IMG/VR virus record: IMGVR_UViG_2917413769_000007
Coordinates: 1 to 13,143 of that record
From: a virus
Taxonomy: Duplodnaviria; Heunggongvirae; Uroviricota; Caudoviricetes
Strand: one strand, 5' to 3'
Length of the DNA stretch: 13,143 nt
The position numbers were made by a program, and so were the translations under genes. The notes beneath the pieces were generated by a model. It had not been told where the DNA came from and ran no database searches. It worked only from the letters and a program-made list of their open reading frames with translations. Positions 1,075 to 12,357 of the stretch are shown here, piece by piece. Positions within the stretch are counted from its first letter, which is position 1. Every line of letters begins with the position of its first letter.

Positions 1075-1755
1075 TTAAGTCCTCATGTTTTTCTCTGAGT
1101 GAACGTAGAAACGGGGATCAACGCTTTTCAGCGTGAAGTGTGTAACGGGCATGTCGTCATGCCGCTCGATGCCAACAAAGTTAGACATGCAAAGCGCAAA
1201 GACGCGTTTCTGAAGTTGATCCAGGCTTATTTTGATGTCCGGGTAATATTTTTTGATCGCAGACATGATCCCCTGATATGAGAGCGTTTTACCCTTCATA
1301 ATCGCCACAAGGTGTTCCGCCGGCAGTTCGCTGGATTTTTGGGTTAATTGGGATTCAGTGGGATTCTCAATGGGTTTTATGGTATCCAACAGCAGACAAC
1401 AGCGGCTGGTAATACCTACCCTATAGCCCGTTTTTTTGTCGTAATTCTCTTTGCTTCCGGAAGTCCATACAGTTGCTGTTTCGCGAAGTTTTACTGTCTT
1501 CTCTCCACCTGAATAAATAACGGTTCCCGTATGCGTCTTACTGAAACACCGTGGGTTGGTTTCAACAGGTTTTGATTTTTTAGTTTTTTTGGCCGCGCGA
1601 GCAGTTAATCCCGGAACAGGTACTGGGCGCGGGCAAGGCACATAAACTGAACGGCTGCGAGCCCTAGCACCTGCGTTCATCCGCCAGATGATTACGTTTG
1701 TCCAGTCACAGGCATCGTCATCTGTCGCTACTTTAGGATAAATTAAATCGGTCAT
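1075..1755 (-). CDS. Hypothetical protein (226 aa from ATG 1755)
   Basis: Long ORF after the helicase; ATG at 1755..1753 is preceded on the coding strand by GAGGAAAGACCA (complement of 1757..1767). The ORF-track start at 1779 is a GTG without that RBS. No family recognised. Confidence 0.5.
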   Translation of the reverse strand: MTDLIYPKVATDDDACDWTNVIIWRMNAGARARSRSVYVPCPRPVPVPGLTARAAKKTKKSKPVETNPRCFSKTHTGTVIYSGGEKTVKLRETATVWTSGSKENYDKKTGYRVGITSRCCLLLDTIKPIENPTESQLTQKSSELPAEHLVAIMKGKTLSYQGIMSAIKKYYPDIKISLDQLQKRVFALCMSNFVGIERHDDMPVTHFTLKSVDPRFYVHSEKNMRT

Positions 1756-1793
1756 TGGTCTTTCCTCATTGTATTTCACGCTGGTCAGGCGTT

Positions 1794-3182
1794 TTAGAAT
1801 GCGTCGGTGTTGTACTTCTCTGCATACTTCCGTTGCTGTTTTCTGGGTTTTGCTGCCTCCAGTTGAATACGGGTCTTCTCTTTGCCGACGAGCTGATCGA
1901 TTGGCAGAAAGTGACCGTTTTTAAATTCCTGATAAACCACAGTACCAGCAGCCGCAAACCGGCATTTGCCGAGAATGACCTCAGCCACACCAGCCGCCGG
2001 GCTTTCAGGGTTATAAACTTCATCGCGGTACAGAAACAGGATGCTGTCAGCGTCCTGCTCGATGGAACCAGAATCACGCAGGTCTGACATTACCGGGCGA
2101 CGCTGCGCCGCCGGACGCGTATCAACCGCGCGGGAAAGCTGGCTGAGCGCAAAGGTCGGTGTATGTAGCCGCATAGCCATCGTTTTGAGATTGCGGGAAA
2201 TGTGCGCTACGGCAAGGTCGTTACGCTCTGCTTTCGGTTTCTTAATCAGGCCGAGATAGTCGACCATGATCATTGCCAGATGCGGATGGCGTCGCTTGTG
2301 TGTCTCCGCGATAGCGCGGATCTGTTCGACTGTGAGATCGGTCGCATCGACAATCCAGATGTCCCTGTCTGTAAGTTCTCCAATGGCTGCGGTCAATCTC
2401 GCCCAGTCCTCGTCGTACATGTCCTGAGGATTACGCAGGCGAGAAACGGACAAGTTTCCGGCACCAGCTAGCGAACGTTCAACAATCTGAGCCGCCGCCA
2501 TTTCCATGCTGAAAATCAACGCGCCGCCGCCCTTTGCCGTCACACCTTCAACGACGGTAAGCGCAAACTCTGTTTTACCCATGCCTGGGCGACCAGCCAC
2601 GACAATAAGATCCTGCGGGTTAATACTGCCTGTTGCGTTATCAAGATCCGCAATACCAGTCAGCAAATTGCGCGTGGATTCGTCACCGTCCATACGTTTC
2701 TGTACTGTGTCCATGTAAGCGGGCAAAAGCTCGTTGATGTGTACCGGCTGAACGTCGCCACTATCAGCAGTCATGTCCAGCAGCTGCGCCACTGCATTTT
2801 CGACCACTTGATCTCGTTGCTCCTGGTTGGCAGCTTTGCGGATGCCGTCAGCGCCATCCTGCAGAAGTTTCGCCAGCGCGCGGCTGCGCCAGGCCTTAAC
2901 CATCTTCCCGGCATACCCTTTCAGGTTCGGCACCGTTGCGGGGATACGGGATATTTCAGACAGGTCAGCCAGACTTGAACCGCCCAGCGCTTCGCTGATG
3001 AATAACATGTCGATCATGCCGTTAGTCAGCGCCTGTTTTTTTATCTCGCTGAATGTACGGCGATGAAAACCAATGCTGAATGATTCTTCTGGCGTGGAGG
3101 CGATCACGTCAAATGCGTCAGGAGAAGCACCGCCATTCAACAGGCCAGCCAGCACACACGCTTCCAGTTCCTGAGGATTCAT
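1794..3182 (-). CDS. Replicative DNA helicase, DnaB family (phage-encoded)
   Basis: 462-aa ORF; Walker A GRPGMGKT followed by other DnaB-like C-terminal-domain sequence (IVVAGRPGMGKTEFAL, SMEM, MIMVDYLGLI, SQLSR); start ATG overlaps the upstream gene stop as ATGA (3182..3179). Confidence 0.9.
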   Translation of the reverse strand: MNPQELEACVLAGLLNGGASPDAFDVIASTPEESFSIGFHRRTFSEIKKQALTNGMIDMLFISEALGGSSLADLSEISRIPATVPNLKGYAGKMVKAWRSRALAKLLQDGADGIRKAANQEQRDQVVENAVAQLLDMTADSGDVQPVHINELLPAYMDTVQKRMDGDESTRNLLTGIADLDNATGSINPQDLIVVAGRPGMGKTEFALTVVEGVTAKGGGALIFSMEMAAAQIVERSLAGAGNLSVSRLRNPQDMYDEDWARLTAAIGELTDRDIWIVDATDLTVEQIRAIAETHKRRHPHLAMIMVDYLGLIKKPKAERNDLAVAHISRNLKTMAMRLHTPTFALSQLSRAVDTRPAAQRRPVMSDLRDSGSIEQDADSILFLYRDEVYNPESPAAGVAEVILGKCRFAAAGTVVYQEFKNGHFLPIDQLVGKEKTRIQLEAAKPRKQQRKYAEKYNTDAF

Positions 3183-4432
3183 AATGCCTCTTCCCTGGTT
3201 TTACGCAGTGTTTCGGGTTTCATGAGATAATCAAAACTGGCACGCCAGCCGTCGTGATGCTCGCCACCGAAATAAAATTCAGGAGCGGTGTTGCGAAATT
3301 TCTCAAGGTATCCCAGAAACGCGCCTGTAGTTTTATTGATCATGTGGGCTGCGAGGCGTGTAATCATCTGGCGGCGATCGGCGTCCAGGGTTGCAGCAGG
3401 TAGCACATCAGCAAAAATTTCGTTGTAAGCATCGACTACCGCAACCGGATCAATACTGGCTTCGGTGGTGGCCCATGCCTCAGCGTCAGCCAGATAACCA
3501 TCGAAGCGGCATACTCGACAGATATTTGCCGGTTTAGGGAGGCTGTCACCCCGGCGGCGCCAGGTAGCCAGTACCCAACGAATAACTAACTGAACATCAT
3601 CCAGCGTATAGCCGTCTCGGGTAGTCGTAGGGGTCATAAGCGCCAGGAACGGCTTCATGTCACGGCAGCGAGTACCGGTTTGCACATTGTAAAAATCTAG
3701 TGCTTTTTTAGCATCTGCAAGGATTTGTTCGCGGGAAATATTAGCAACCGAGGATGTTTCTGGATGCGCACCAATCACAGTGATCCCGTCAAATTCGTAG
3801 CGTTCTGTAATTACGCCATCTCTGACCAGAATAAAGCCATCACTAAGCTGTTTTAATTTTGTTATGGATTTATCCCGCACGTTGATTCGATCAATTTCAA
3901 TACCGCATTGTTCACCATCGCTTCCAGTTACTAGTAAATCAACGCGGCCTCTGCGACCGTTACCACGATCAGCTACCGGGTATTCGCGCTGGCAGTCAAA
4001 GCCTGCACCAACAATCGCAGACTCAACAGCATCGTGAAGCTCACCTGCTTTTTCAAAATCAAATTTACCTTCGAGAAGGGAAATCAGTTGCTCACGCAAT
4101 ACATGTCCGCCAACTCTCCCAACGGGAGATTTAGAGGGATATATATTCTCTGTAGTAATCTCTGTATGAATATTTGCTGGTTTTCCACTTACTTGTCTGG
4201 TGGTTTTCCGCACTCCAGTATGTGTTTTTTCCGCATTCTTGTTTGCGGCTATAAGTACCTGATATAAAAACGTCATTATCAACCTTGTAGAAAAGTCGAG
4301 CAGGAACACCTTTTCGTTTTTCCAGCAGTACACCAATTGAGCGAAGTTTTTTACGCGCCCCTTCCTGCTCATAGCGAGAAAGGCCTGTTTCTTCTTCCCA
4401 TTCTTCTTGGGTTTTATATACCCACCCGTCAT
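3179..4432 (-). CDS. Replication initiator (O-like), downstream frame: central nuclease-fold-like segment plus conserved phage replication C-terminal domain
   Basis: C-terminal 170 aa (GYTLDDVQLVIRWVLATWRRRGD...EFYFGGEHHDGWRASFDYL) resemble the conserved C-terminal domain of phage replication initiators, by recollection. The first ~50 codons of the tracked ORF are out-of-frame translation of the N-terminal domain; likely continuation of 4131..4556 across a frameshift. Confidence 0.65.
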   Translation of the reverse strand: MTGGYIKPKKNGKKKQAFLAMSRKGRVKNFAQLVYCWKNEKVFLLDFSTRLIMTFLYQVLIAANKNAEKTHTGVRKTTRQVSGKPANIHTEITTENIYPSKSPVGRVGGHVLREQLISLLEGKFDFEKAGELHDAVESAIVGAGFDCQREYPVADRGNGRRGRVDLLVTGSDGEQCGIEIDRINVRDKSITKLKQLSDGFILVRDGVITERYEFDGITVIGAHPETSSVANISREQILADAKKALDFYNVQTGTRCRDMKPFLALMTPTTTRDGYTLDDVQLVIRWVLATWRRRGDSLPKPANICRVCRFDGYLADAEAWATTEASIDPVAVVDAYNEIFADVLPAATLDADRRQMITRLAAHMINKTTGAFLGYLEKFRNTAPEFYFGGEHHDGWRASFDYLMKPETLRKTREEAL

Positions 4433-4556
4433 CGTCGGATCGGTTAGTCCAGTAGGTCATTTGTGAAAGAAAAAGCGAGGCAGTAACACCAATATTCAGG
4501 CGAATAAAACTACGCTGGAAGGCGATCGGCCTGTCGAGTAGTGGGAGTATATTCAT
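4131..4556 (-). CDS. Replication initiator (O-like), N-terminal replisome-organizer/DNA-binding domain (upstream frame)
   Basis: Motif MTYWTNRSDDDGWVYKTQEEWEEETGLSRYEQEGARKKLRSIGVLLEKRKGVPARLFYKVD, typical of phage replisome-organizer N-domains by recollection; ATG at 4556..4554 sits 2 nt after the upstream gene's stop; sequence degrades after FYKVD. Confidence 0.65.
   Translation of the reverse strand: MNILPLLDRPIAFQRSFIRLNIGVTASLFLSQMTYWTNRSDDDGWVYKTQEEWEEETGLSRYEQEGARKKLRSIGVLLEKRKGVPARLFYKVDNDVFISGTYSRKQECGKNTYWSAENHQTSKWKTSKYSYRDYYREYISL
4147..4235. repeat. Candidate replication-origin iterons inside the O-like gene
   Basis: Direct repeats GGTTTTCCACT (4179..4189), GGTTTTCCGCAC (4202..4213), TTTTTCCGCAT (4226..4236) at about 23-bp spacing, plus TCTCTGTA twice (4147..4154, 4159..4166), next to an AT-rich stretch (4255..4280). 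Confidence 0.4.
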
Positions 4557-4558
4557 GA

Positions 4559-4783
4559 TCAAATCCCCAGAGTTTCGGCGATTTGACGACATGCCGCCTG
4601 ATATTCCTCAGATGACAATTCCATTTCACGGAGTTCTTCTTTCAGTTTTTCATACTGCGCCCAGATAGATAGCGCAGCTGCGCGACGGCCTTCGAAAATA
4701 TCTTCGATATCATCCAGGGTGGCTGGCACCCCGTTTAGTCGAAATCCGTTCCGCCATGTAATGCGGTCGATTGAAGTCAGCAT
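4559..4783 (-). CDS. Hypothetical small protein (74 aa) between the YdaT-like and O-like genes
   Basis: ATG at 4783..4781 preceded by GAGGAAAGACCAAT (complement of 4787..4797); product MLTSIDRITWRNGFRLNGVPATLDDIEDIF...; no family recognised. Confidence 0.6.
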   Translation of the reverse strand: MLTSIDRITWRNGFRLNGVPATLDDIEDIFEGRRAAALSIWAQYEKLKEELREMELSSEEYQAACRQIAETLGI

Positions 4784-4805
4784 ATTGGTCTTTCCTCGAT
4801 ACAAG

Positions 4806-5252
4806 TTAAACGCTGGTCAGGCGCTGTGTTTCCTGTATGGCTTGTAATGCCTGCGCTATACGCTGGGGTCGATCCCTTGCTTCAAGCAACAGAGCAATAA
4901 TCGCCGCGGCAAAATCACGAATCGCAATGCAAATTAACTGCTGAGTGGTCATTCCCAGCTGTGCATATCGTTCCGCAGGCAACGCAGCTTCCATCGCCAT
5001 GGCCAGCGCTTTCGTTTTGATTCTTGCCGCTTTCGTCTCACCACGTAGCCAGCGAAAAATCTGCTGCCGGTTGTTGTTGATAGCCCGCCAGTCAGCATTA
5101 CCTTTCGAATCCTCCATCGGGTGAAGTTTTACGTAGCTGGTATTGCCACCCATTCGAAACCACATGCGAGTGATCTCAATAGCAACATGTTCCTGGCCAC
5201 GCTCAGCAGCCCAGTTGAAGATTTCTCTTTTCAGTTCGTCGAGGTTTTCCAC
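4806..5252 (-). CDS. ydaT: YdaT-like protein (Rac-prophage YdaT family)
   Basis: 148-aa ORF with GTG start and AGGAG 10 nt upstream; segment WRAINNNRQQIFRWLRGETKAARIKTKAL matches my recollection of YdaT; located directly downstream of the Cro-like gene as in Rac. Confidence 0.7.
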   Translation of the reverse strand: MENLDELKREIFNWAAERGQEHVAIEITRMWFRMGGNTSYVKLHPMEDSKGNADWRAINNNRQQIFRWLRGETKAARIKTKALAMAMEAALPAERYAQLGMTTQQLICIAIRDFAAAIIALLLEARDRPQRIAQALQAIQETQRLTSV

Positions 5253-5517: not shown

Positions 5518-5598
5518 TGCCGATCTCCATTTTGTTAACTTTAAGAAACAAAATTACGAGTTAAAGAAAATTAAGTCAAGTAAATTTATATTAACTAC
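5518..5598. promoter_or_regulatory. Divergent promoter/operator region of the immunity switch
   Basis: 81-bp AT-rich intergenic region between divergent repressor and cro-like genes; minus-strand -35 TTGACT (complement of 5574..5579); operator-like 18-mer GTTAACTTTAAGAAACAA at 5534..5551 with flanking inverted repeat TTTGTT/AACAAA. Confidence 0.5.
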
Positions 5599-6009
5599 AT
5601 GAACAAAATCAGCCCTGGCGAGCGCATTAAAAAGCGACGTAAAGAACTCAACCTAACTCAGCGTGAAGTCGCAAAACTCGCGCAGGTATCGCACGTCACA
5701 ATCTCTAAATGGGAAAACGATGACAACGAGCCTCAGGGCAGGAACTTGTTCCAGTTGAGTCAGGCCCTGCAATGTTCACCCACCTGGATTTTATACGGGG
5801 ACGAAGACAAACAGCCCGAGCCTCCAGCAGTATCTGAAGAAGATAAGATCACATTAGATGAGCTTGAAGAGCAGCTACTCGAGCTTTTCAGGGCACTACC
5901 CAGTTCAGAAAAAGAACGCCATTTAACTGAGCTTCGCGGAAAAGTGGACGATTTTAATCGTCTGTTTTACGAATTGCTCCAAGCAAGAAAAACCTCCAAG
6001 AAAAAATAA
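5599..6009 (+). CDS. dicA: HTH (XRE-family) repressor, DicA-like
   Basis: 136 aa; HTH segment LTQREVAKLAQVSHVTISKWEN; LQCSPTWILYGDEDKQP and LLELFRALPSSEKE match my recollection of E. coli DicA; no peptidase S24 domain. Confidence 0.9.
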   Translation: MNKISPGERIKKRRKELNLTQREVAKLAQVSHVTISKWENDDNEPQGRNLFQLSQALQCSPTWILYGDEDKQPEPPAVSEEDKITLDELEEQLLELFRALPSSEKERHLTELRGKVDDFNRLFYELLQARKTSKKK

Positions 6010-6045
6010 ATCCATTAAAATCAAATAAATGGATGAGTGTCGCCC

Positions 6046-6110
6046 TTTTATTTAACTTTTATAAACAAATTTATGTTGACTGATAATTTAACCTTTATTA
6101 AATTAACTTC
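6046..6110 (+). promoter_or_regulatory. Candidate early-left promoter with second operator copy
   Basis: TTTAACTTTTATAAACAA (6051..6068) matches the 5534..5551 operator-like 18-mer at 15/18 positions; followed by TTGACT (6076..6081), a 17-nt spacer and TAAATT (6099..6104). Confidence 0.4.
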
Positions 6111-6217
6111 CATCAACGACGCACTAACCACGCGGCAGTTGTTCAGAAAAACGTTCCGCCGCCGGGCGTAAAGCGGATGAGGGAATCGGCGCTAACAACA
6201 AAGCAATGGGGTGAGTG

Positions 6218-6535
6218 ATGGAATTCAGCAAGCTGCCACACGAAGTGCAGGTAATTGCCGCCAAATGCCTGGCAGACGAAATCAATACAGTTTCAGGTTT
6301 TGCAGGCAATGAGGTTAACCGCGGTCCCGCTAAAGAGCAGGCCAAACAGGTTCGTGACGCATTCATTGCTCTTTTTTCAGAGCGCGAGATGGAAGGTGAG
6401 AAAAAAGCGGCAGCAGAGAGAATTGCTGCCACCATCGCAGGCATGCAGCAACTGATTGGTAGCGATGAGGTGCTAAAAACCCAAGTTAAACATCTGATTT
6501 CAGCGACTGAAGATTTGCTTGATAAGTGCCTGTAA
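6218..6535 (+). CDS. Hypothetical protein (105 aa), first gene after the repressor
   Basis: Coding-like composition (MEFSKLPHEVQVIAAKCLADEIN...); GGGGTGAG upstream of ATG; the opposite-strand ORF 6124..6576 is low complexity and judged non-coding. Confidence 0.55.
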   Translation: MEFSKLPHEVQVIAAKCLADEINTVSGFAGNEVNRGPAKEQAKQVRDAFIALFSEREMEGEKKAAAERIAATIAGMQQLIGSDEVLKTQVKHLISATEDLLDKCL

Positions 6536-6736
6536 TTGGTAAGTGACCGATACACCATCTCCGTTAGATGGTCCATCTACATCAGGAAATCGAAGGGTGA
6601 CATTGTTTTTAAGGGCTTTTAGTTGTTCTGAAGTTAACAGTTTAAGGGCTTCATCAAGCATTACGTTTGTTGCTTCCAGAGTGGCTTCTGAGACTTTTGG
6701 CTTAATTTCCTCAAGCATTTTAGAAAGTTGACTCAT
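6500..6736 (-). CDS. Hypothetical protein (78 aa), convergent with 6218..6535
   Basis: Internal ATG at 6736..6734 of the tracked ORF is preceded by AAGG 7 nt upstream; product MSQLSKMLEEIKPKVSEATLEATNVMLDEALKLL...; candidate -10 TATACT (complement of 6769..6774). Confidence 0.4.
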   Translation of the reverse strand: MSQLSKMLEEIKPKVSEATLEATNVMLDEALKLLTSEQLKALKNNVTLRFPDVDGPSNGDGVSVTYQLQALIKQIFSR

Positions 6737-6885
6737 GTTTTTACCTTGCTGGTTATGTGAGAACGCCCAGTATACCACCGAGCCTGAAGTGGCTAAAAGA
6801 CAGGCAACGAATTCGCGGGTCGCCGCCAGTACGATGACATGCGGGAAAGACCGCAATGAATCCAAAATTGCTGTGTGTAGTCTTT

Positions 6886-6912
6886 GCCCAGCCACCACGG
6901 TGGGCACTTTTT
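6886..6912 (+). terminator. Candidate intrinsic terminator (plus strand)
   Basis: GC-rich hairpin GCCCA-N10-TGGGC (or CCAC-CACG-GTGG) followed by ACTTTTTTTC. Confidence 0.45.
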
Positions 6913-7111
6913 TTCACACAGTTACGATTTTACCGTTGTGACTGAGTCTCCAGACGGAGAGGCCAAACCCACAATGTGACACCAGGGAAAGACCGAAGGA
7001 AGTACAACGCCTGACCAGCGTAAACCGAGCATGACCAGCTCTGGCACCGGGGAAGACCGGAAGAGGAAAGACCTGATGGCCTCACCAGCCTGACTGCCGG
7101 GAAAGACCGGC

Positions 7112-7148
7112 ACCCTTTAGATGGCAAAAGGCCCGCACAAGGCGGGCC
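7112..7148 (+). promoter_or_regulatory. nut-like element: boxA-like CCCTTTAG plus boxB-like hairpin
   Basis: CCCTTTA (7113..7119) resembles boxA CGCTCTTTA; 11 nt later a perfect 7-bp GC stem GGCCCGC/GCGGGCC with 5-nt loop ACAAG (7130..7148), not followed by a U tract. Confidence 0.25.
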
Positions 7149-7276
7149 AGTTACCCCGGGCGGCGACCAAACCACCCGGATTGTTCCGCAGGGGACCAAC
7201 CCTGCGGAGAGGAAAGACCAATGCAGGACAGAGCCAACACTGATCGGCTCTGAGTATATATCACTAAGGAGCCGCT

Positions 7277-7600
7277 ATGGAAGCGCTAACCATCCCCGTA
7301 AAGCTGTACATCCATTACAACGCCAACACTTTCTCTCAGGAAAAAATCATTGTCGCCACCTGTGACATGTCACGTAGTTTTCCAGATCAATATGTCTTGC
7401 TGGAAACGCGCAATATATCCATCGATGTAAACCAACCAGAGCCATTCGACATTATTGCTCTGCAGGTCGACCAGTTGCGTGACCAGAAAGAGAAAATCGC
7501 AACTTTGGCGCAAAGTCAGATAGCCCAGGTTGACGACAAAATACAGCAACTGCTCTGTATTGATCACTCACCTGTTCAGGAAAGCGACATCCCATTTTGA
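7277..7600 (+). CDS. Hypothetical protein (107 aa) immediately upstream of the annealing-protein gene
   Basis: Strong SD TAAGGAG 6 nt upstream of ATG; coding-like acidic protein; no family recognised. Confidence 0.65.
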   Translation: MEALTIPVKLYIHYNANTFSQEKIIVATCDMSRSFPDQYVLLETRNISIDVNQPEPFDIIALQVDQLRDQKEKIATLAQSQIAQVDDKIQQLLCIDHSPVQESDIPF

Positions 7601-7695
7601 TCAACCGGCGCCAGACCAGCGCCAGTAACCAAAGAGGAAAGACCAAGTGACAATTTATAACTGTCTGTTCGAGCCGAAGAAATCTGCTATCAAGG

Positions 7696-9918
7696 ATGGT
7701 GCTGTTGCATTGGCAATCAGCATCGAAGCGCCAAATAAAAAAAGTCGCTGAAAGTATCATCATCGGCAAACTCTGGGAGCATTATCCTGCAAATGGCGAC
7801 AACTATTTTAAACCTAAAATCTGGGAAGATTCAGAGGGCCAGCCTCGTCCGGAAGTCGGAAAATTTGATGAGCAATTTGCTCAGGCGAACACATTAGACG
7901 GGGAAAAGTGGATCGCCAACGATTCAGACACCAGTACTTTAAATTTGCCAGCCAACGACGAGATAATCGATCTGACGAAGCTGCCAGCTCGTGAACGCTT
8001 CATTGCCATTCTTATGTTCAGTGATTCCCCCATTGACGGTGTACTGTACTCTCAGGTGCTGGATTATCTTGATAATCTGGAAAATAGCCACGAGCCGTTT
8101 GATGATGACGATCGGCTGAATTCTAATATTCTTCATGCCCTGGAAAATAACGAACCCGTTCGTCACATGCATGTTGAGGGGGTAAACAATCTGATTCAGG
8201 CCATCTTCGCTAAATTTGAAGGCCAGGCACCGGGTAAGGCAGCAATTTCACAGTTCATTAAACGCTGGATGGAAAATCCTCGTAAGCGTGAAGAAATGCG
8301 GCCGGAAAATACCGCATTGAATAATGATGGTGTCAACAATGACAGTAACAAAGTAGCACCACAGCGCGGATATAAGCATTCTTATGCCACACTGGATCAG
8401 GAAATTGCCCTCGCCCTTCTCCCGATTAATTTCACAGAAACAGTATCAGTTCGTGCGCTACGATCTGCTGAACACATCATTGAAGAAGACCGAGAAGATT
8501 TCAAACGCTGGTCAGCGGCACTACGTACGACAGAGCAGATCCTGAAGTATGACCGCCCCAGTGTTTTTGGCGTTATTCAGAATGCACCTGCTAAAGATAC
8601 ATACCATTTCCCTGAGTCACTGCGGCACCATATTGATTCCTGGCTGGCTGAAAATGGTCAGTTCGAGTGTGCTGGTACTGATGCGGAGAGAACCAGCAAA
8701 CTGCTTGCGGCAGAGCGCGGCGAGTACGTCGAAGGTATCAGCGACCCTAACGATCCTAAATGGGTTAAAACAGATTCCCAACCTCAGGTATCAAACCTCG
8801 GCAATGGAATGTTCTCTGTTGATAATCTTCTGCCTGAAACCGCCTCAAAGGAAGGTGAAAAACAGGAAGTGACCGAACAAGGAACTGTTACAGAAGACCA
8901 GGCAACACAGGCCCGAGAAAAGTTGAACAGCATGGGTTACGGCGTTTATGCAACGAACCATGACGAAACTGACCAGCAGGAAGAAAAGCTGAGCGATAAA
9001 GTAAAAACTCTCGTTCAGGATGCGGATCAACTTGTCGAGCGCGTTAAACGTGAAGAGCAGCTCCCGCAGGCATCTGAACTGGTTCAGAGCATCAACGAAA
9101 TGCAGTCTACTGAACGCGATAACCTGGAATTGTGGAAAGAGGTGTTCAAAACAGATGAGCGTTTTACTACTGCGTTCTCTGTGAATGGCGGCGGAACCTC
9201 AATCAATGGCACCTACATGACCATGATCGCTACCCGCGAATTTGGTCCGAAAGGTATCGGCTGGGGTGTGGATATTCTTGAAGAACGCTTTGACGATGGC
9301 GCGCCAATTACTCGCGCAGTCAAAGGGACTGACGGTAACAATACATGGGAGTTTATTCCCGACGGTGTAGGCGGCATCCTGACAGAGAAACACCACGTTA
9401 TCAAAATCAGACTTTGGTACATCCGGAATGGTGCGCGCGGTGAAGAGATTTCATTCGGGTGTACCCCGTATATTTACGGCAGCAAATACGGCCCTATTTG
9501 CGATGGTGAAGCGACAAAAAAATCACTGACTGACGCAACCAAAAAAGCGCTGTCTGCACTTGGTTTCTGCGCTGATATTTTCATGGGCCTGTACGATAAC
9601 CCGGAGTATCGCCAGAAAAATAAAGCAGAATTCGCGCTCAAAAACGCCAGCGAAAACGCCGAGGATGCCGCCCGCGTACGTCAGGAACTGGACGACAAAC
9701 TGACCCGAGTCGCTAACACCATTGCATCTGCTGTATCAGAGCACGAGATCAACAAGGTCTATTCTTCGATTGCTCGCGAAGCGGAGGTGCATCGCAAGGA
9801 TGCAGAGGCGAAAGGTGACACACAGCATGCCCGTTACTTAGGTGGGCGTCTGCGTCGCCTGACAACTATCAAAGATGGACGTATCGCCGAACTGAAAAAA
9901 GTACAGGAGAAAGCATAA
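7696..9918 (+). CDS. Large protein with C-terminal Erf/Rad52-like single-strand annealing domain and ~470-aa unknown N-terminal region
   Basis: 740-codon ORF; residues ~480-640 (EATKKSLTDATKKALSALGFCADIFMGLYD) match the Erf (GATSSYARKYCLNGLFGIDD) and Rad52 helix motifs from memory; tracked ATG 7696 has no usable SD; see frameshift finding. Confidence 0.8.
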   Translation: MVLLHWQSASKRQIKKVAESIIIGKLWEHYPANGDNYFKPKIWEDSEGQPRPEVGKFDEQFAQANTLDGEKWIANDSDTSTLNLPANDEIIDLTKLPARERFIAILMFSDSPIDGVLYSQVLDYLDNLENSHEPFDDDDRLNSNILHALENNEPVRHMHVEGVNNLIQAIFAKFEGQAPGKAAISQFIKRWMENPRKREEMRPENTALNNDGVNNDSNKVAPQRGYKHSYATLDQEIALALLPINFTETVSVRALRSAEHIIEEDREDFKRWSAALRTTEQILKYDRPSVFGVIQNAPAKDTYHFPESLRHHIDSWLAENGQFECAGTDAERTSKLLAAERGEYVEGISDPNDPKWVKTDSQPQVSNLGNGMFSVDNLLPETASKEGEKQEVTEQGTVTEDQATQAREKLNSMGYGVYATNHDETDQQEEKLSDKVKTLVQDADQLVERVKREEQLPQASELVQSINEMQSTERDNLELWKEVFKTDERFTTAFSVNGGGTSINGTYMTMIATREFGPKGIGWGVDILEERFDDGAPITRAVKGTDGNNTWEFIPDGVGGILTEKHHVIKIRLWYIRNGARGEEISFGCTPYIYGSKYGPICDGEATKKSLTDATKKALSALGFCADIFMGLYDNPEYRQKNKAEFALKNASENAEDAARVRQELDDKLTRVANTIASAVSEHEINKVYSSIAREAEVHRKDAEAKGDTQHARYLGGRLRRLTTIKDGRIAELKKVQEKA

Positions 9919-10705: not shown

Positions 10706-10903
10706 ATGCTGCGATGGCAACCCGGAGCTACTCTGCTCACAGATTTCGATATAAAGATTGGCCGGTTATCGGCAAGCGTACGAAAGAAGACACTGACCCA
10801 GTCCGACATCGAACGCGCCTGCAGTGATGCTGACGACGCTGTGTACCGGATGATGAGGAAAGACCAACATGACCAGAGAAAACGATCTGCTAACAGACGC
10901 TGA
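10706..10903 (+). CDS. Hypothetical small protein (65 aa)
   Basis: Internal ATG at 10706 preceded by AGGAGG with 5-nt spacing; product MLRWQPGATLLTDFDIKIGRLSASVRKKTLTQSDIERACSD...; 3' end overlaps the xis-like start by 35 nt. Confidence 0.5.
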   Translation: MLRWQPGATLLTDFDIKIGRLSASVRKKTLTQSDIERACSDADDAVYRMMRKDQHDQRKRSANRR

Positions 10904-11093: not shown

Positions 11094-12113
11094 ATGGGGC
11101 GCAGAAGAAAGGATCCGGGTGATAACAGGTTACCCCCGCGCGTATCAAAAACCAGAACTCGTTACTACTACAAACCCACCTCGCGGGAGACCGTGACGCT
11201 TGGACCAATCACCTTCACTATGTCGGCGTTATGGAAACGGTACGAAGAAGAGCGACGCAATTATTCAGATGTGATGACGTTCGAAAAGCTCTGGAAGATG
11301 TTTCTTAAAAGCGCCTACTACACCGAGCTTGCAATACGAACCCAGCGGGATTACCTGCAACATCAGAAAAAACTACTTGTCGTATTCGGTAAAGTTAAAG
11401 CTGATTTAATCAAACCGGAAGACGTTCGTCAGTTTATGGATCGTCGTGGCCTACAAAGTAAAAATCAGGCTAACCAGGAAATGAGCAGTATGTCGCGTGT
11501 TTACCGCTGGGGATACGAACGCGGTTACGTTAAGGGAAACCCGTGCGCCGGCGTCAGTAAATTCTCTCTCAAGGCCCGCGAGCAATACATCACTGACGAA
11601 GACTACCTGGCGATTTATAAACATGCAGATCACGTCGTCAGGGCAGCAATGGAAATATCGTACCTGTGCGCAGCCCGGCAAGCTGATGTACTCGCTCTGC
11701 GCTGGATGCAGATATCTGACAAGGGGATTTTTATCCAGCAGGGTAAGACAGGGAAAAAGCAAATTAAGGTGTGGACGCCCCGCCTTCGGCAGGCGCTGGA
11801 AACGGCACAGACAGAATGCCCGAGGCTCTCACCTGATTCACTGGTTATCTATAACAACGATCGTGCTCAGTTCATCCGCAAGACGTTCAATAATCGCTGG
11901 CTAAAGGCCGTACGTGCCGCACAAAGCGAACTGGGCCGGCAACTGGATTACACGTTTCACGATATAAAGGCAAAAGCCATTTCAGATTTTGAGGGGAGTA
12001 GCAGGGATAAGCAGATATTTAGCGGTCACAAAACAGAAAGTCAGGTGCTTATCTACGACAGAAAGGTGCAAATCAGTCCGACGCTGGATCGTCCTTTGAT
12101 AAATGGCCAGTAG
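11094..12113 (+). CDS. int: Tyrosine recombinase / phage integrase
   Basis: 339 aa; alignable by eye to lambda Int catalytic region: AARQADVLALRW (Arg-I), QQGKTGKK (Lys), TFHDIKAKAISDF (His box), FSGHKTESQVLIYDRK (His-II and Tyr). Confidence 0.9.
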   Translation: MGRRRKDPGDNRLPPRVSKTRTRYYYKPTSRETVTLGPITFTMSALWKRYEEERRNYSDVMTFEKLWKMFLKSAYYTELAIRTQRDYLQHQKKLLVVFGKVKADLIKPEDVRQFMDRRGLQSKNQANQEMSSMSRVYRWGYERGYVKGNPCAGVSKFSLKAREQYITDEDYLAIYKHADHVVRAAMEISYLCAARQADVLALRWMQISDKGIFIQQGKTGKKQIKVWTPRLRQALETAQTECPRLSPDSLVIYNNDRAQFIRKTFNNRWLKAVRAAQSELGRQLDYTFHDIKAKAISDFEGSSRDKQIFSGHKTESQVLIYDRKVQISPTLDRPLINGQ

Positions 12114-12212: not shown

Positions 12213-12357
12213 GTCCATTTTTCAGATATGGTCGGGTAGCGCGTATACCGAAAAACAGCCGAAAGGTTAAGGATACGGGCCGACTTTGCACGGTGTTCAA
12301 GTACCTGACCGCCCTGCTGAACACAGGGCTATCTGAACAAATGCAAAGGACATAAAA

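Follow-up and report, generated by a model that had tools for sequence, protein, structure and literature searches.

The window analysed here is the whole 13,143-nucleotide (nt) stretch of IMG/VR virus record IMGVR_UViG_2917413769_000007 (Caudoviricetes), and it represents the early region of a Rac-like temperate phage. A 9-mer, GGAAAGACC, recurs in it directly before gene starts and again several times in a segment at 6843-7222 that is poor in open reading frames (ORFs). It was concluded from the comparison of related sequences that the right half of this segment is probably a gene for a small RNA (sRNA), coded on the strand opposite to the motif. The motif would then be a tag and the sRNA its antisense partner, which occludes the Shine-Dalgarno (SD) sequence and the start codon across a regulon. 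A probability of roughly 0.65 is given to this system; the presence of a gene for a structured RNA on the minus strand is held with higher confidence than the full mechanism.

According to this reading, the sRNA would be made in the lysogen, while the early-left promoter is repressed. Such lysogen-biased expression is proposed because the sRNA promoter faces the early-left promoter. Pairing with the tagged ribosome-binding sites (RBSs) would begin at an unpaired UUUCCUC toehold or by loop-loop contacts, and the paired sRNA would cover the SD sequence together with the start codon. In this way, leaky expression would be shut off for the exonuclease, for Xis/Int, for the replication block, and for the gene of 216 amino acids (aa), and translational coupling would carry the effect to the genes behind each tagged gene. 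The sRNA, fully complementary to the early-left leader, could also act there in cis.

The predicted sRNA gene on the minus strand

In an alignment of seven relatives, the region 7060-7277 is conserved and contains three hairpins with compensatory changes. Where only one side of a pair is changed, the result is a G-U pair on the minus strand and a C-A mismatch on the plus strand. A scan of viral contigs for a conserved pattern gave 100 loci. A set of 47 unique sequences was submitted to RNAalifold and used for building a covariance model, R1, with 48 sequences in the model alignment. The RNAalifold structure consists of a 5' hairpin, two hairpins with the loop UUGGUC, and a terminator, with compensatory changes in 15 of 26 pairs. 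Model R1 has a single match in the window, at 7122-7247 on the minus strand (111 bits, E = 9e-23), and one strong match of 77-133 bits in each of the loci. Weak matches on the opposite strand beside the main match were anchored on the palindromic terminator and were not significant. The predicted elements of the gene are as follows:

7122..7247, minus strand: predicted antisense (anti-tag) sRNA gene of ~125 nt, recognized by covariance model, fold, and covariation
7253..7258, minus strand: candidate sigma-70 -10 box TATACT of the sRNA promoter, invariant and at a fixed distance
7237-7245 paired with 7216-7224, minus strand: 5' hairpin P1, covarying as CG24/UA17/UG7
7208..7223, minus strand: seed CAUUGGUCUUUCCUCU, the complement of AGAGGAAAGACCAAUG; on the plus strand, this is the motif copy at 7211
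7185..7208, minus strand: hairpin H1 with the loop UUGGUC; 100% of cells pair and 7 of 9 pairs have double changes
7156..7179, minus strand: hairpin H2 with the loop UUGGUC, invariant in 67/67 sequences and not imposed by the search pattern
7126..7148, minus strand: intrinsic terminator GGCCCGC-CUUGU-GCGGGCC with U-run, the stem covarying

The predicted sRNA of the window has a minimum free energy (MFE) of -71.6 kcal/mol (z = -7.5). Over the 48 sequences of the model alignment, 94.1% of pairing cells are paired, compared with 83.4% in shuffles, none of which reached the observed value (0/500). Changes on both sides were found in 20 of 33 base pairs, and the covariation score is 0.398 versus 0.111 at most when the partners are slid. 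Pairing is also strand-specific, as 219 cells pair on the minus strand only and 7 on the plus strand only. In the inner stem of H2, 93.5% of cells pair on the minus strand versus 67.0% on the plus strand. The stem of H1 is wholly different in a prophage of Escherichia coli sequence type 131 (ST131), with the loop retained. On the minus strand, 4-7 U residues come after the terminator hairpin. The plus strand has no such U-run behind the hairpin, and its A-run is invariant.

The candidate -10 box lies outside the search pattern, and TATA[C/A]T is invariant in 67/67 unique relatives. It is located 5 nt 5' of model position 1 in every clade, including the clades found by a protein search, and one clade has TGnTATAAT at this position. 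The predicted sRNA start is straddled by a palindrome, CAGAGCC-N10-GGCUCUG with a conserved GATC (7230-7252), the arms of which covary between clades.

No match at gathering score to any family of Rfam 15, which includes the C4 antisense RNA, was obtained at 7122-7247 or in the non-coding region of 12 relatives. Low-score matches on the minus strand to Trp leader, isrB, and PtaRNA1 (E 0.46-9.6) are at chance level. Literature searches with the motif and seed strings, for RprA-like phage RNAs, and for sRNAs of ST131 prophages revealed no report of the sRNA or the motif.

The first-pass annotation of this DNA had proposed for the segment a graveyard of gene starts left by deletions, or a set of micro-ORFs or leader peptides. 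Six copies of the motif lie within 6843-7222 with only very short ORFs or none after them, and the micro-ORFs are indeed at the positions and of the lengths described there (29 codons from 6856, 5 from 7076, and 10 from 7221). Three copies in the window thus have start codons after them, a stretch at about 6960-7060 is missing from most relatives, and two genes of the window are frameshifted, so some decay or sequencing error did occur. Against decay and micro-ORFs stands the core 7062-7277, which is conserved between genera and whose compensatory changes do not respect reading frames. From Escherichia to Serratia, the right half of the segment is preserved, with such changes in four helices. 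Neither the ATGs nor the ORF lengths are conserved: relatives lack the ATG behind copy 7211 and have AACGAC there, and the ORF after the copy of the 7065 type ranges from none to about 50 codons. The long genes that intact relatives might have carried here were not found in any relative, and the Prokaryotic Genome Annotation Pipeline (PGAP) annotates nothing between the repressor and 107-aa genes in two E. coli prophages. An origin by decay or as micro-ORFs is therefore regarded as highly improbable.

The seed and the tagged gene starts

Copies of the 9-mer in the window are located as follows:

6844, 6986, 7065, 7100, 7211, 7636, and 10857, plus strand: GGAAAGACC, exact
1757-1765 and 4787-4795, minus strand: GGAAAGACC, exact
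7050, plus strand: GGGAAGACC, one mismatch
4947, minus strand: GGAATGACC, one mismatch

The nine exact copies in 13.1 kb, seven on the plus strand and two on the minus strand, agree with the count of the first-pass annotation; the single additional variant mentioned there does exist, but two copies with one mismatch were found and not one. In 200 shuffles preserving dinucleotides, the mean number of copies with at most one mismatch was 2.46 and the maximum 8, and 0/200 reached 11, so the enrichment over a shuffled background suggested as a check was obtained. Four copies outside the segment directly precede starts, at ATG 1755 and ATG 4783 on the minus strand and at GTG 7647 and ATG 10869 on the plus strand, and these coordinates had been correctly given.

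The 11 copies (GGAAAGACC or GGGAAGACC) in the complete 44-kb genome of the relative BUCT709 are confined to the early region, and its late region of 26 kb is free of them. One copy is present in 50 kb of the host E. coli chromosome. Altogether, 736 copies were counted in 107 related loci (1.11 Mb), compared with about 8.5 expected for a random 9-mer. In these loci, 379 of the 736 copies sit 0-8 nt 5' of a start codon that opens an ORF of 40 aa or more. Nearly all copies not at starts cluster around a single point of the non-coding region, no more than 650 nt away from it, beside the sRNA gene. A general SD preference of the phage or the host, the ordinary context that the first-pass annotation had named as a refutation, was rejected on these counts. 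The 9-mer is also identical to nt 2056-2064 of E. coli 23S rRNA, at the A2058 macrolide/Erm site. Mimicry of 23S rRNA was rejected, since this identity is not conserved in a variant clade that uses GGCAAGACC; it is most likely a coincidence. As GACC fits the DRACH consensus, a site for an MT-A70 methylase would be a further, purely speculative reading.

Just 3' of its 5' hairpin, the predicted sRNA reads 5'-...GCAUUGGUCUUUCCUCU-3'. This sequence and AGAGGAAAGACCAAUG are exactly complementary, which makes copy 7211 the other strand of the seed. The seed part UUUCCUC is unpaired in the MFE structure. The core of the tag is (GA)GGAAAGACC(AA), followed by the start codon, and at four tagged genes the perfect complement extends over 13-15 nt from the SD sequence through the start codon. 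Seed duplexes at these four genes have energies of -22.9 to -26.6 kcal/mol, compared with -13.2 kcal/mol or weaker at 12 untagged starts. These values come from a seed-only calculation, as RNAduplex with the whole sRNA against 75-nt targets was uninformative. In about 180 related prophage loci, the tag stands 0-8 nt before the starts of four gene families. The putative trans targets in the window are as follows:

7607..7649, plus strand: target 1, hairpin GGCGC-CAGACCA-GCGCC, GAGGAAAGACCAA, and GTG of the RecE-like exonuclease; duplex -24.3 kcal/mol
10855..10871, plus strand: target 2, GAGGAAAGACCAAC and ATG of xis (DUF4224 excisionase); duplex -22.9 kcal/mol
4781..4823, minus strand: target 3, hairpin CGC-CUGACCA-GCG, GAGGAAAGACCAAU, and AUG of a 74-aa gene (phrog_2465); duplex -25.4 kcal/mol
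1753..1791, minus strand: target 4, hairpin CGC-CUGACCA-GCG, GAGGAAAGACCA, and AUG of a 226-aa gene (phrog_4183); duplex -26.6 kcal/mol

The product of the gene starting at 7647 had been taken for an annealing protein; it is a RecE-like exonuclease (phrog_2489), and this family is tagged in 95 loci. The exonuclease stop overlaps the next start. The tag of xis begins directly after the TGA of the preceding ORF, and the stop of xis directly adjoins int. In 55 loci, the tag stands at an xis of the DUF4224 type, and in eight more it stands at the gene of an unrelated, non-homologous excisionase. The 73-aa protein family (74 aa in the window) is tagged in 94 loci; in the window, its stop codon is 2 nt before the replication-initiator start. 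The 226-aa gene begins just after the DnaB stop, and a 216-aa family after DnaB is tagged in 70 loci. The tag is a mark of the first gene of several translationally coupled early-gene blocks.

Three of the four tagged families have a small hairpin with the loop CUGACCA 13-15 nt 5' of the tag. Its stem covaries between clades (GCGC/GCGC versus ACGG/CCGU) and the loop is conserved. The UUGGUC loops of the sRNA have their complements in the tag (GACCAA) and at the 3' side of the upstream hairpin loop (GACCAG), and the order of the elements is compatible with antiparallel pairing.

These features bear on a second explanation, in which the sRNA acts purely as a cis-antisense RNA on the early-left leader and the tags are an SD-plus-spacer cassette or a recombination boundary homogenised by recombination. 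In its favour, the complementarity between the sRNA and the overlapped leader is complete, lambdoid phages are mosaic, and near-identical intergenic modules of about 40 nt recur in front of different genes, as they do twice in locus L007. The conserved island is, however, just 9-15 nt long in differing flanks and would therefore be a poor substrate for gene conversion; at xis, it is located where the upstream coding sequence ends. The late genes of this phage are without the tag. Both sRNA loops and the target hairpin loops are conserved and mutually complementary, for which a purely cis role has no need. This explanation is considered improbable.

A protein search that made no use of the RNA pattern, with the 73-aa protein as query, gave further loci, and in six of them the model match carries the seed GGUCUUGCC. 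In this variant clade (6 loci), the gene-start tags more than 900 nt from the seed are all GGCAAGACC (27/27). In the main clade (111 loci, seed GGUCUUUCC), those more than 900 nt away are all GGAAAGACC (253/253). The tag totals are 27-29 and 253-366, respectively, and no locus mixes GGAAAGACC and GGCAAGACC; a seed with UUUCC goes with GGAAAGACC tags and one with UUGCC with GGCAAGACC tags. The form GGUAAGACC, which makes a U-G wobble with the variant seed, is present in the variant clade only. In the main clade, nine out of ten context-plausible single-base variants of the tag retain pairing via G-U. There is a weak correspondence between the 2-nt flank of the tag and that of the seed (observed value reached in 6/1000 permutations). 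The co-variation shows that there is a common sequence-specific reader, and the wobble pattern points to an RNA.

Further copies in the segment and the weighing of readers

In addition to copy 7211, which is the seed template, two classes of copies were distinguished in the segment: class I at 7065, and class II at 6844, 7050, 7100, and, in degenerate form, 6986. The features around them are as follows:

7062..7078, plus strand: class I copy (single-stranded, SD-type), AGAGGAAAGACCUGAUG at 7065; no conserved ORF; seed duplex -25.7 kcal/mol
7078..7090, plus strand: small hairpin GGC-CUCACCA-GCC; GGGC-CUGACCA-GCCC in relatives
7096..7111, plus strand: class II copy, hairpin GCCGG-GAAAGA-CCGGC after CUGACUG; conserved, with GC/CG covariation at one pair
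7047..7060, plus strand: class II copy (variant 7050), hairpin CCGG-GGAAGA-CCGG, in a lineage-specific stretch
6984..6998, plus strand: degenerate class II-like copy AGGGAAAGACCGAAG, in a lineage-specific stretch
7008-7020 and 7027-7041, plus strand: hairpins with the loop UGACCA after the degenerate copy
6787..6915, plus strand: RprA-like element with an intrinsic terminator at 6886-6915 (RF00034, 50.6 bits, E = 6e-6)

Copy 7065 is kept in nearly all relatives, about 15-25 nt 3' of the plus strand terminator, and its equivalent is GGCAAGACC in 6/6 loci of the variant clade. This suggests a putative binding or decoy site in the early-left leader. The stem of the small hairpin at 7078-7090 varies in a compensatory manner (GGGC/GCCC, GAGC/GCUC, GGA/UCC) with the loop kept. 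No promoter on the plus strand was found in 6916-7276 by scan or by eye.

The general form of the class II copies is N-CGG-GAAAGA-CCG-N with a 6-nt loop, mostly after (C/G)UGAC(A/U)G. Such hairpins are present also in the leader of relatives just 3' of the early-left promoter. For the hairpin at 7096-7111, the G-U counts are 8 versus 3 between the strands and do not settle the strand. A stretch of about 145 nt around 6960-7060 is common to the window and BUCT709, partial in E. coli strain 44, and absent in most relatives. It looks more like a duplication, with tag, UGACCA hairpin, and GAAAGA hairpin as one unit, than like the result of decay.

The boxB hairpin of phage lambda is GCCCU-GAAAA-AGGGC with a 5-nt GNRA-like loop. 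The GAAAGA hairpins resemble it, and antitermination of the nut/boxB type by them is a possible reading; their loop has 6 nt versus 5 nt in boxB, and no N-like protein is found among the first early-left genes. The products of these genes (106 aa and 107 aa) are not arginine-rich and have no Pfam match. The sole basic ORF (7121-7243) coincides in part with the sRNA gene and is without conservation.

The RprA-like element forms the left end of the segment. Its score of 50.6 bits falls short of the gathering score (70), and the RprA 5' hairpin has no counterpart, while the last 50 nt or so with the terminator are nearly identical to the RprA consensus (resemblance at 6841-6915). Copy 6844 lies here in the hairpin GCGG-GAAAGA-CCGC (6841-6854), at the position of the second hairpin of RprA. 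The RprA-like 3' block is found 200-350 nt 5' of the seed in 71 of 108 unique loci, and it occurs also in E. coli phages Eeyore, Flotzy, and LLS. In locus L005, the early-left promoter runs straight into this block, whereas genes 6215-6535 (plus strand) and 6500-6736 (minus strand) intervene in the window. Antiterminator pairing of copy 6844 with GUCUUUGCCC near the plus strand terminator was rejected, as it is absent from the MFE fold and its spacing is not conserved.

Several of these observations weigh against the sRNA-tag system. The class II hairpins retain GGAAAGAC in loci with a changed seed, and seed pairing therefore fails to explain every copy. The class I decoy candidate lies between two convergent terminators, which makes the transcript carrying the decoy ambiguous. 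Half of the seed, UUGGUC, is sequestered in hairpin P1 of the predicted fold. The complement of the seed is trivially present on the opposite strand, and co-variation alone would not be proof that the sRNA is the reader. Moreover, the alignment used for covariation was fitted to the model, and the related sequences are not independent. The -35 element is weak with a spacing that is not conserved, and transcription of the sRNA, its ends, its stability, and its effect on translation are all inferred.

For the motif, the first-pass annotation had also considered a binding site for protein or RNA. The RNA form is the one supported, with the complement of the motif exposed in the antisense sRNA and with seed and tags changing together. 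In the protein form, a protein would read (GA)GGAAAGACC(AA) on the mRNA and the segment would serve as a platform or sponge, comparable to CsrB for CsrA, with the minus strand RNA acting in cis only or as a modulator. Several copies do lie in a short non-coding stretch, three of them shown in hairpin loops, and the class II loops stay as they are when the seed changes, as if they were read by something else. A uniform change of tags in one clade requires just some common reader. But the conserved structured RNA bears the complement of the tag and not the tag itself, and the tolerated variants obey G-U wobble, including GGUAAGACC, which is restricted to loci with G in the seed. No candidate for an RNA-binding protein emerged, and the 107-aa protein encoded next to the segment is without a match in Pfam or among solved structures. 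A protein reader is thus considered unlikely, though slightly less so than a role of the sRNA in cis only.

An extended form of the sRNA-tag system is proposed more tentatively and is rather less probable than occlusion of tagged starts as such. In this translational address system, one sRNA would read the tags on the first gene of each coupled block in both divergent operons. The types GGAAAGACC and GGCAAGACC would represent RNA specificity groups, with matched seed and tag, beside repressor immunity. The sense-strand tag copies in the leader would be decoys that titrate the sRNA on induction.

Known systems, distribution, and genomic context

An RBS-occluding antisense RNA of a phage is itself of a known kind; the novelty would consist in the regulon-wide tag and the matched seed/tag types. 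The closest known system is c4 of phages P1 and P7, which acts on one operon (icd-ant) and is processed from a transcript shared with its target. The loops of this phage RNA pair around the RBS and block translation, and matched changes in RNA and target define heteroimmunity (PMC12197685). The likeness is in the RBS complementarity, found here at four genes, and in the joint change of seed and tags in one clade. In contrast to c4, the RNA predicted here is on the opposite strand with its own -10 box and terminator, is antisense to the leader, and is not processed from the target operon. It would act at the starts of at least four gene blocks, which belong to two divergent operons. At 7122-7247, no family of Rfam, c4 among them, reaches its gathering score, and no match to c4 with E of 10 or less was obtained in 6700-7300.

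As a sequence phenomenon, the start-associated sequences (SAS) of Cluster K mycobacteriophages are the closest. SAS is a 13-bp asymmetric motif with an SD core, located 3-7 bp before starts in the non-structural half of the genome only (PMC3203893). Its copies share a single orientation, precede unrelated genes, and are nearly lacking in the host, and about half of them have a second element upstream, the extended SAS (ESAS) (PMC3203893). The SAS reader, RNA or protein, was not identified, and the authors saw no support for mRNA hairpins at ESAS (PMC3203893). Asymmetry, SD core, placement before unrelated genes, orientation, non-structural bias, rarity in the host, and a second element upstream all hold for the tag described here. 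The differences are in the consensus (GGGATAGGAGCCC versus GGAAAGACC/GGCAAGACC), in the host, which belongs to another phylum, and in the upstream element, which is a covarying hairpin here.

In P4 CI RNA and in attenuation of the pT181 type, a small RNA pairs with repeated complements in a leader and causes premature termination in that one leader. The sense-strand tag copies beside terminators in the early-left leader resemble this arrangement. Unlike in P4 CI and pT181, the best-supported sites are translation starts far from the RNA gene, and attenuation is not demonstrable. P22 sar and lambda OOP are short antisense transcripts with their own promoters in early regions, and they affect the balance of lysis and lysogeny (PMC12197685). 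They differ in acting on the one gene overlapped, without a dispersed tag or a regulon in trans. StxS is a short RNA that arises by early termination of a phage transcript and activates RpoS (PMC7547250, PMC12197685). Resemblance to RprA and StxS is limited to 6841-6915 of the plus strand, which is similar to the RprA 3' half with its terminator, StxS also being a terminated leader sRNA of a phage; the element of the window differs from RprA in its score under the Rfam gathering score and in having no match to the RprA 5' hairpin.

The region 7060-7290 was found in 453 out of 5426 complete E. coli genomes, ST131 strains included. In ST131, the locus is a prophage adjoining the tRNA-Leu/Cys/Gly cluster, with a model match of 99 bits and tags at the same gene families. 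In the ST131 strain uk_P46212 (NZ_CP013658.1), the sRNA is predicted at 1125584-1125724 on the minus strand, which corresponds to 7029-7169 of locus L184. The sRNA element is present also in prophages of Citrobacter, Salmonella, Klebsiella, Raoultella, Enterobacter, and Serratia; it has no annotation anywhere and is absent from Rfam 15. If the proposed system is true, it would be an RNA layer of lysogeny control separate from the repressor, in which a single transcript restrains excision, recombination, and replication by recognition of a tag and not gene by gene. Simple changes in seed and tag could then yield new specificity groups. The same logic could explain SAS of Cluster K, and it provides a testable hypothesis for these sequences, whose reader has remained unidentified since 2011. 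A compact natural pair of tag and sRNA could also be reused for translational control of several genes.

The repressor gene is located at 5599-6009 on the plus strand. Genes for Cro, YdaT, the replication initiator, and DnaB are all on the minus strand, and the early-left operon on the plus strand consists of the 107-aa gene, a RecE-like gene, a Gp157/Gam-like gene, xis, and int. A strong-looking promoter, TTGACT-17-TAAATT (6076-6104, plus strand), lies directly 3' of the repressor gene among operator-like repeats. These repeats, TTTnTTAACTTT, are present on both sides of the repressor gene (5527-5556 and 6044-6117), which fits an arrangement of right and left operators (OR/OL).

Convergent small genes at 6215-6535 (plus strand, 106 aa) and 6500-6736 (minus strand, 78 aa) overlap at their 3' ends and represent an insertion into the early-left leader relative to locus L005. 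A terminator-like site on the minus strand is located at 6406-6433. In some relatives, the leader has an insert ending in GGTTCGATTCCGGGCGC (about 6700-6790 in locus L184 and 5680-5700 in locus L006) that resembles the 3' end of a tRNA; ARAGORN predicted no tRNA or tmRNA at these inserts.

The 107-aa protein (7277-7597, plus strand, phrog_2479) always adjoins the sRNA gene. It has no Pfam domain and no match among solved structures at E <0.08. Its AlphaFold model, with a predicted local distance difference test (pLDDT) value of 88, consists of a beta-hairpin sheet and a 39-residue helix. The protein was found only in Enterobacterales, with the best match (99% identity) in Citrobacter amalonaticus.

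Two early genes are split. The RecE-like gene is divided into 7647-7751 and 7696-9918 (plus strand) by a frameshift in the A-run at 7737-7743. The replication-initiator gene is divided into 4131-4592 and 3179-4432 (minus strand), with the start at about 4556 and the other frame from 4432. Either a homopolymer sequencing error or a decaying prophage could be the cause.

The closest relatives of the window are prophages of Citrobacter, Raoultella, Escherichia, and Serratia, together with the deposited phages BUCT708 and BUCT709. The latter two (loci L001 and L003, AC No. OM816835.1) are designated as 'Stenotrophomonas' phages. They are 89% identical to the region and have the whole early-gene layout in common with it; as they are so close to an enterobacterial prophage region, their stated host deserves a check. 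Just 3' of the integrase gene (11094-12113), a full-length match to sRNA-Xcc1 (RF02221) was identified at 12230-12318 on the plus strand, with 68.3 bits, above the gathering score.

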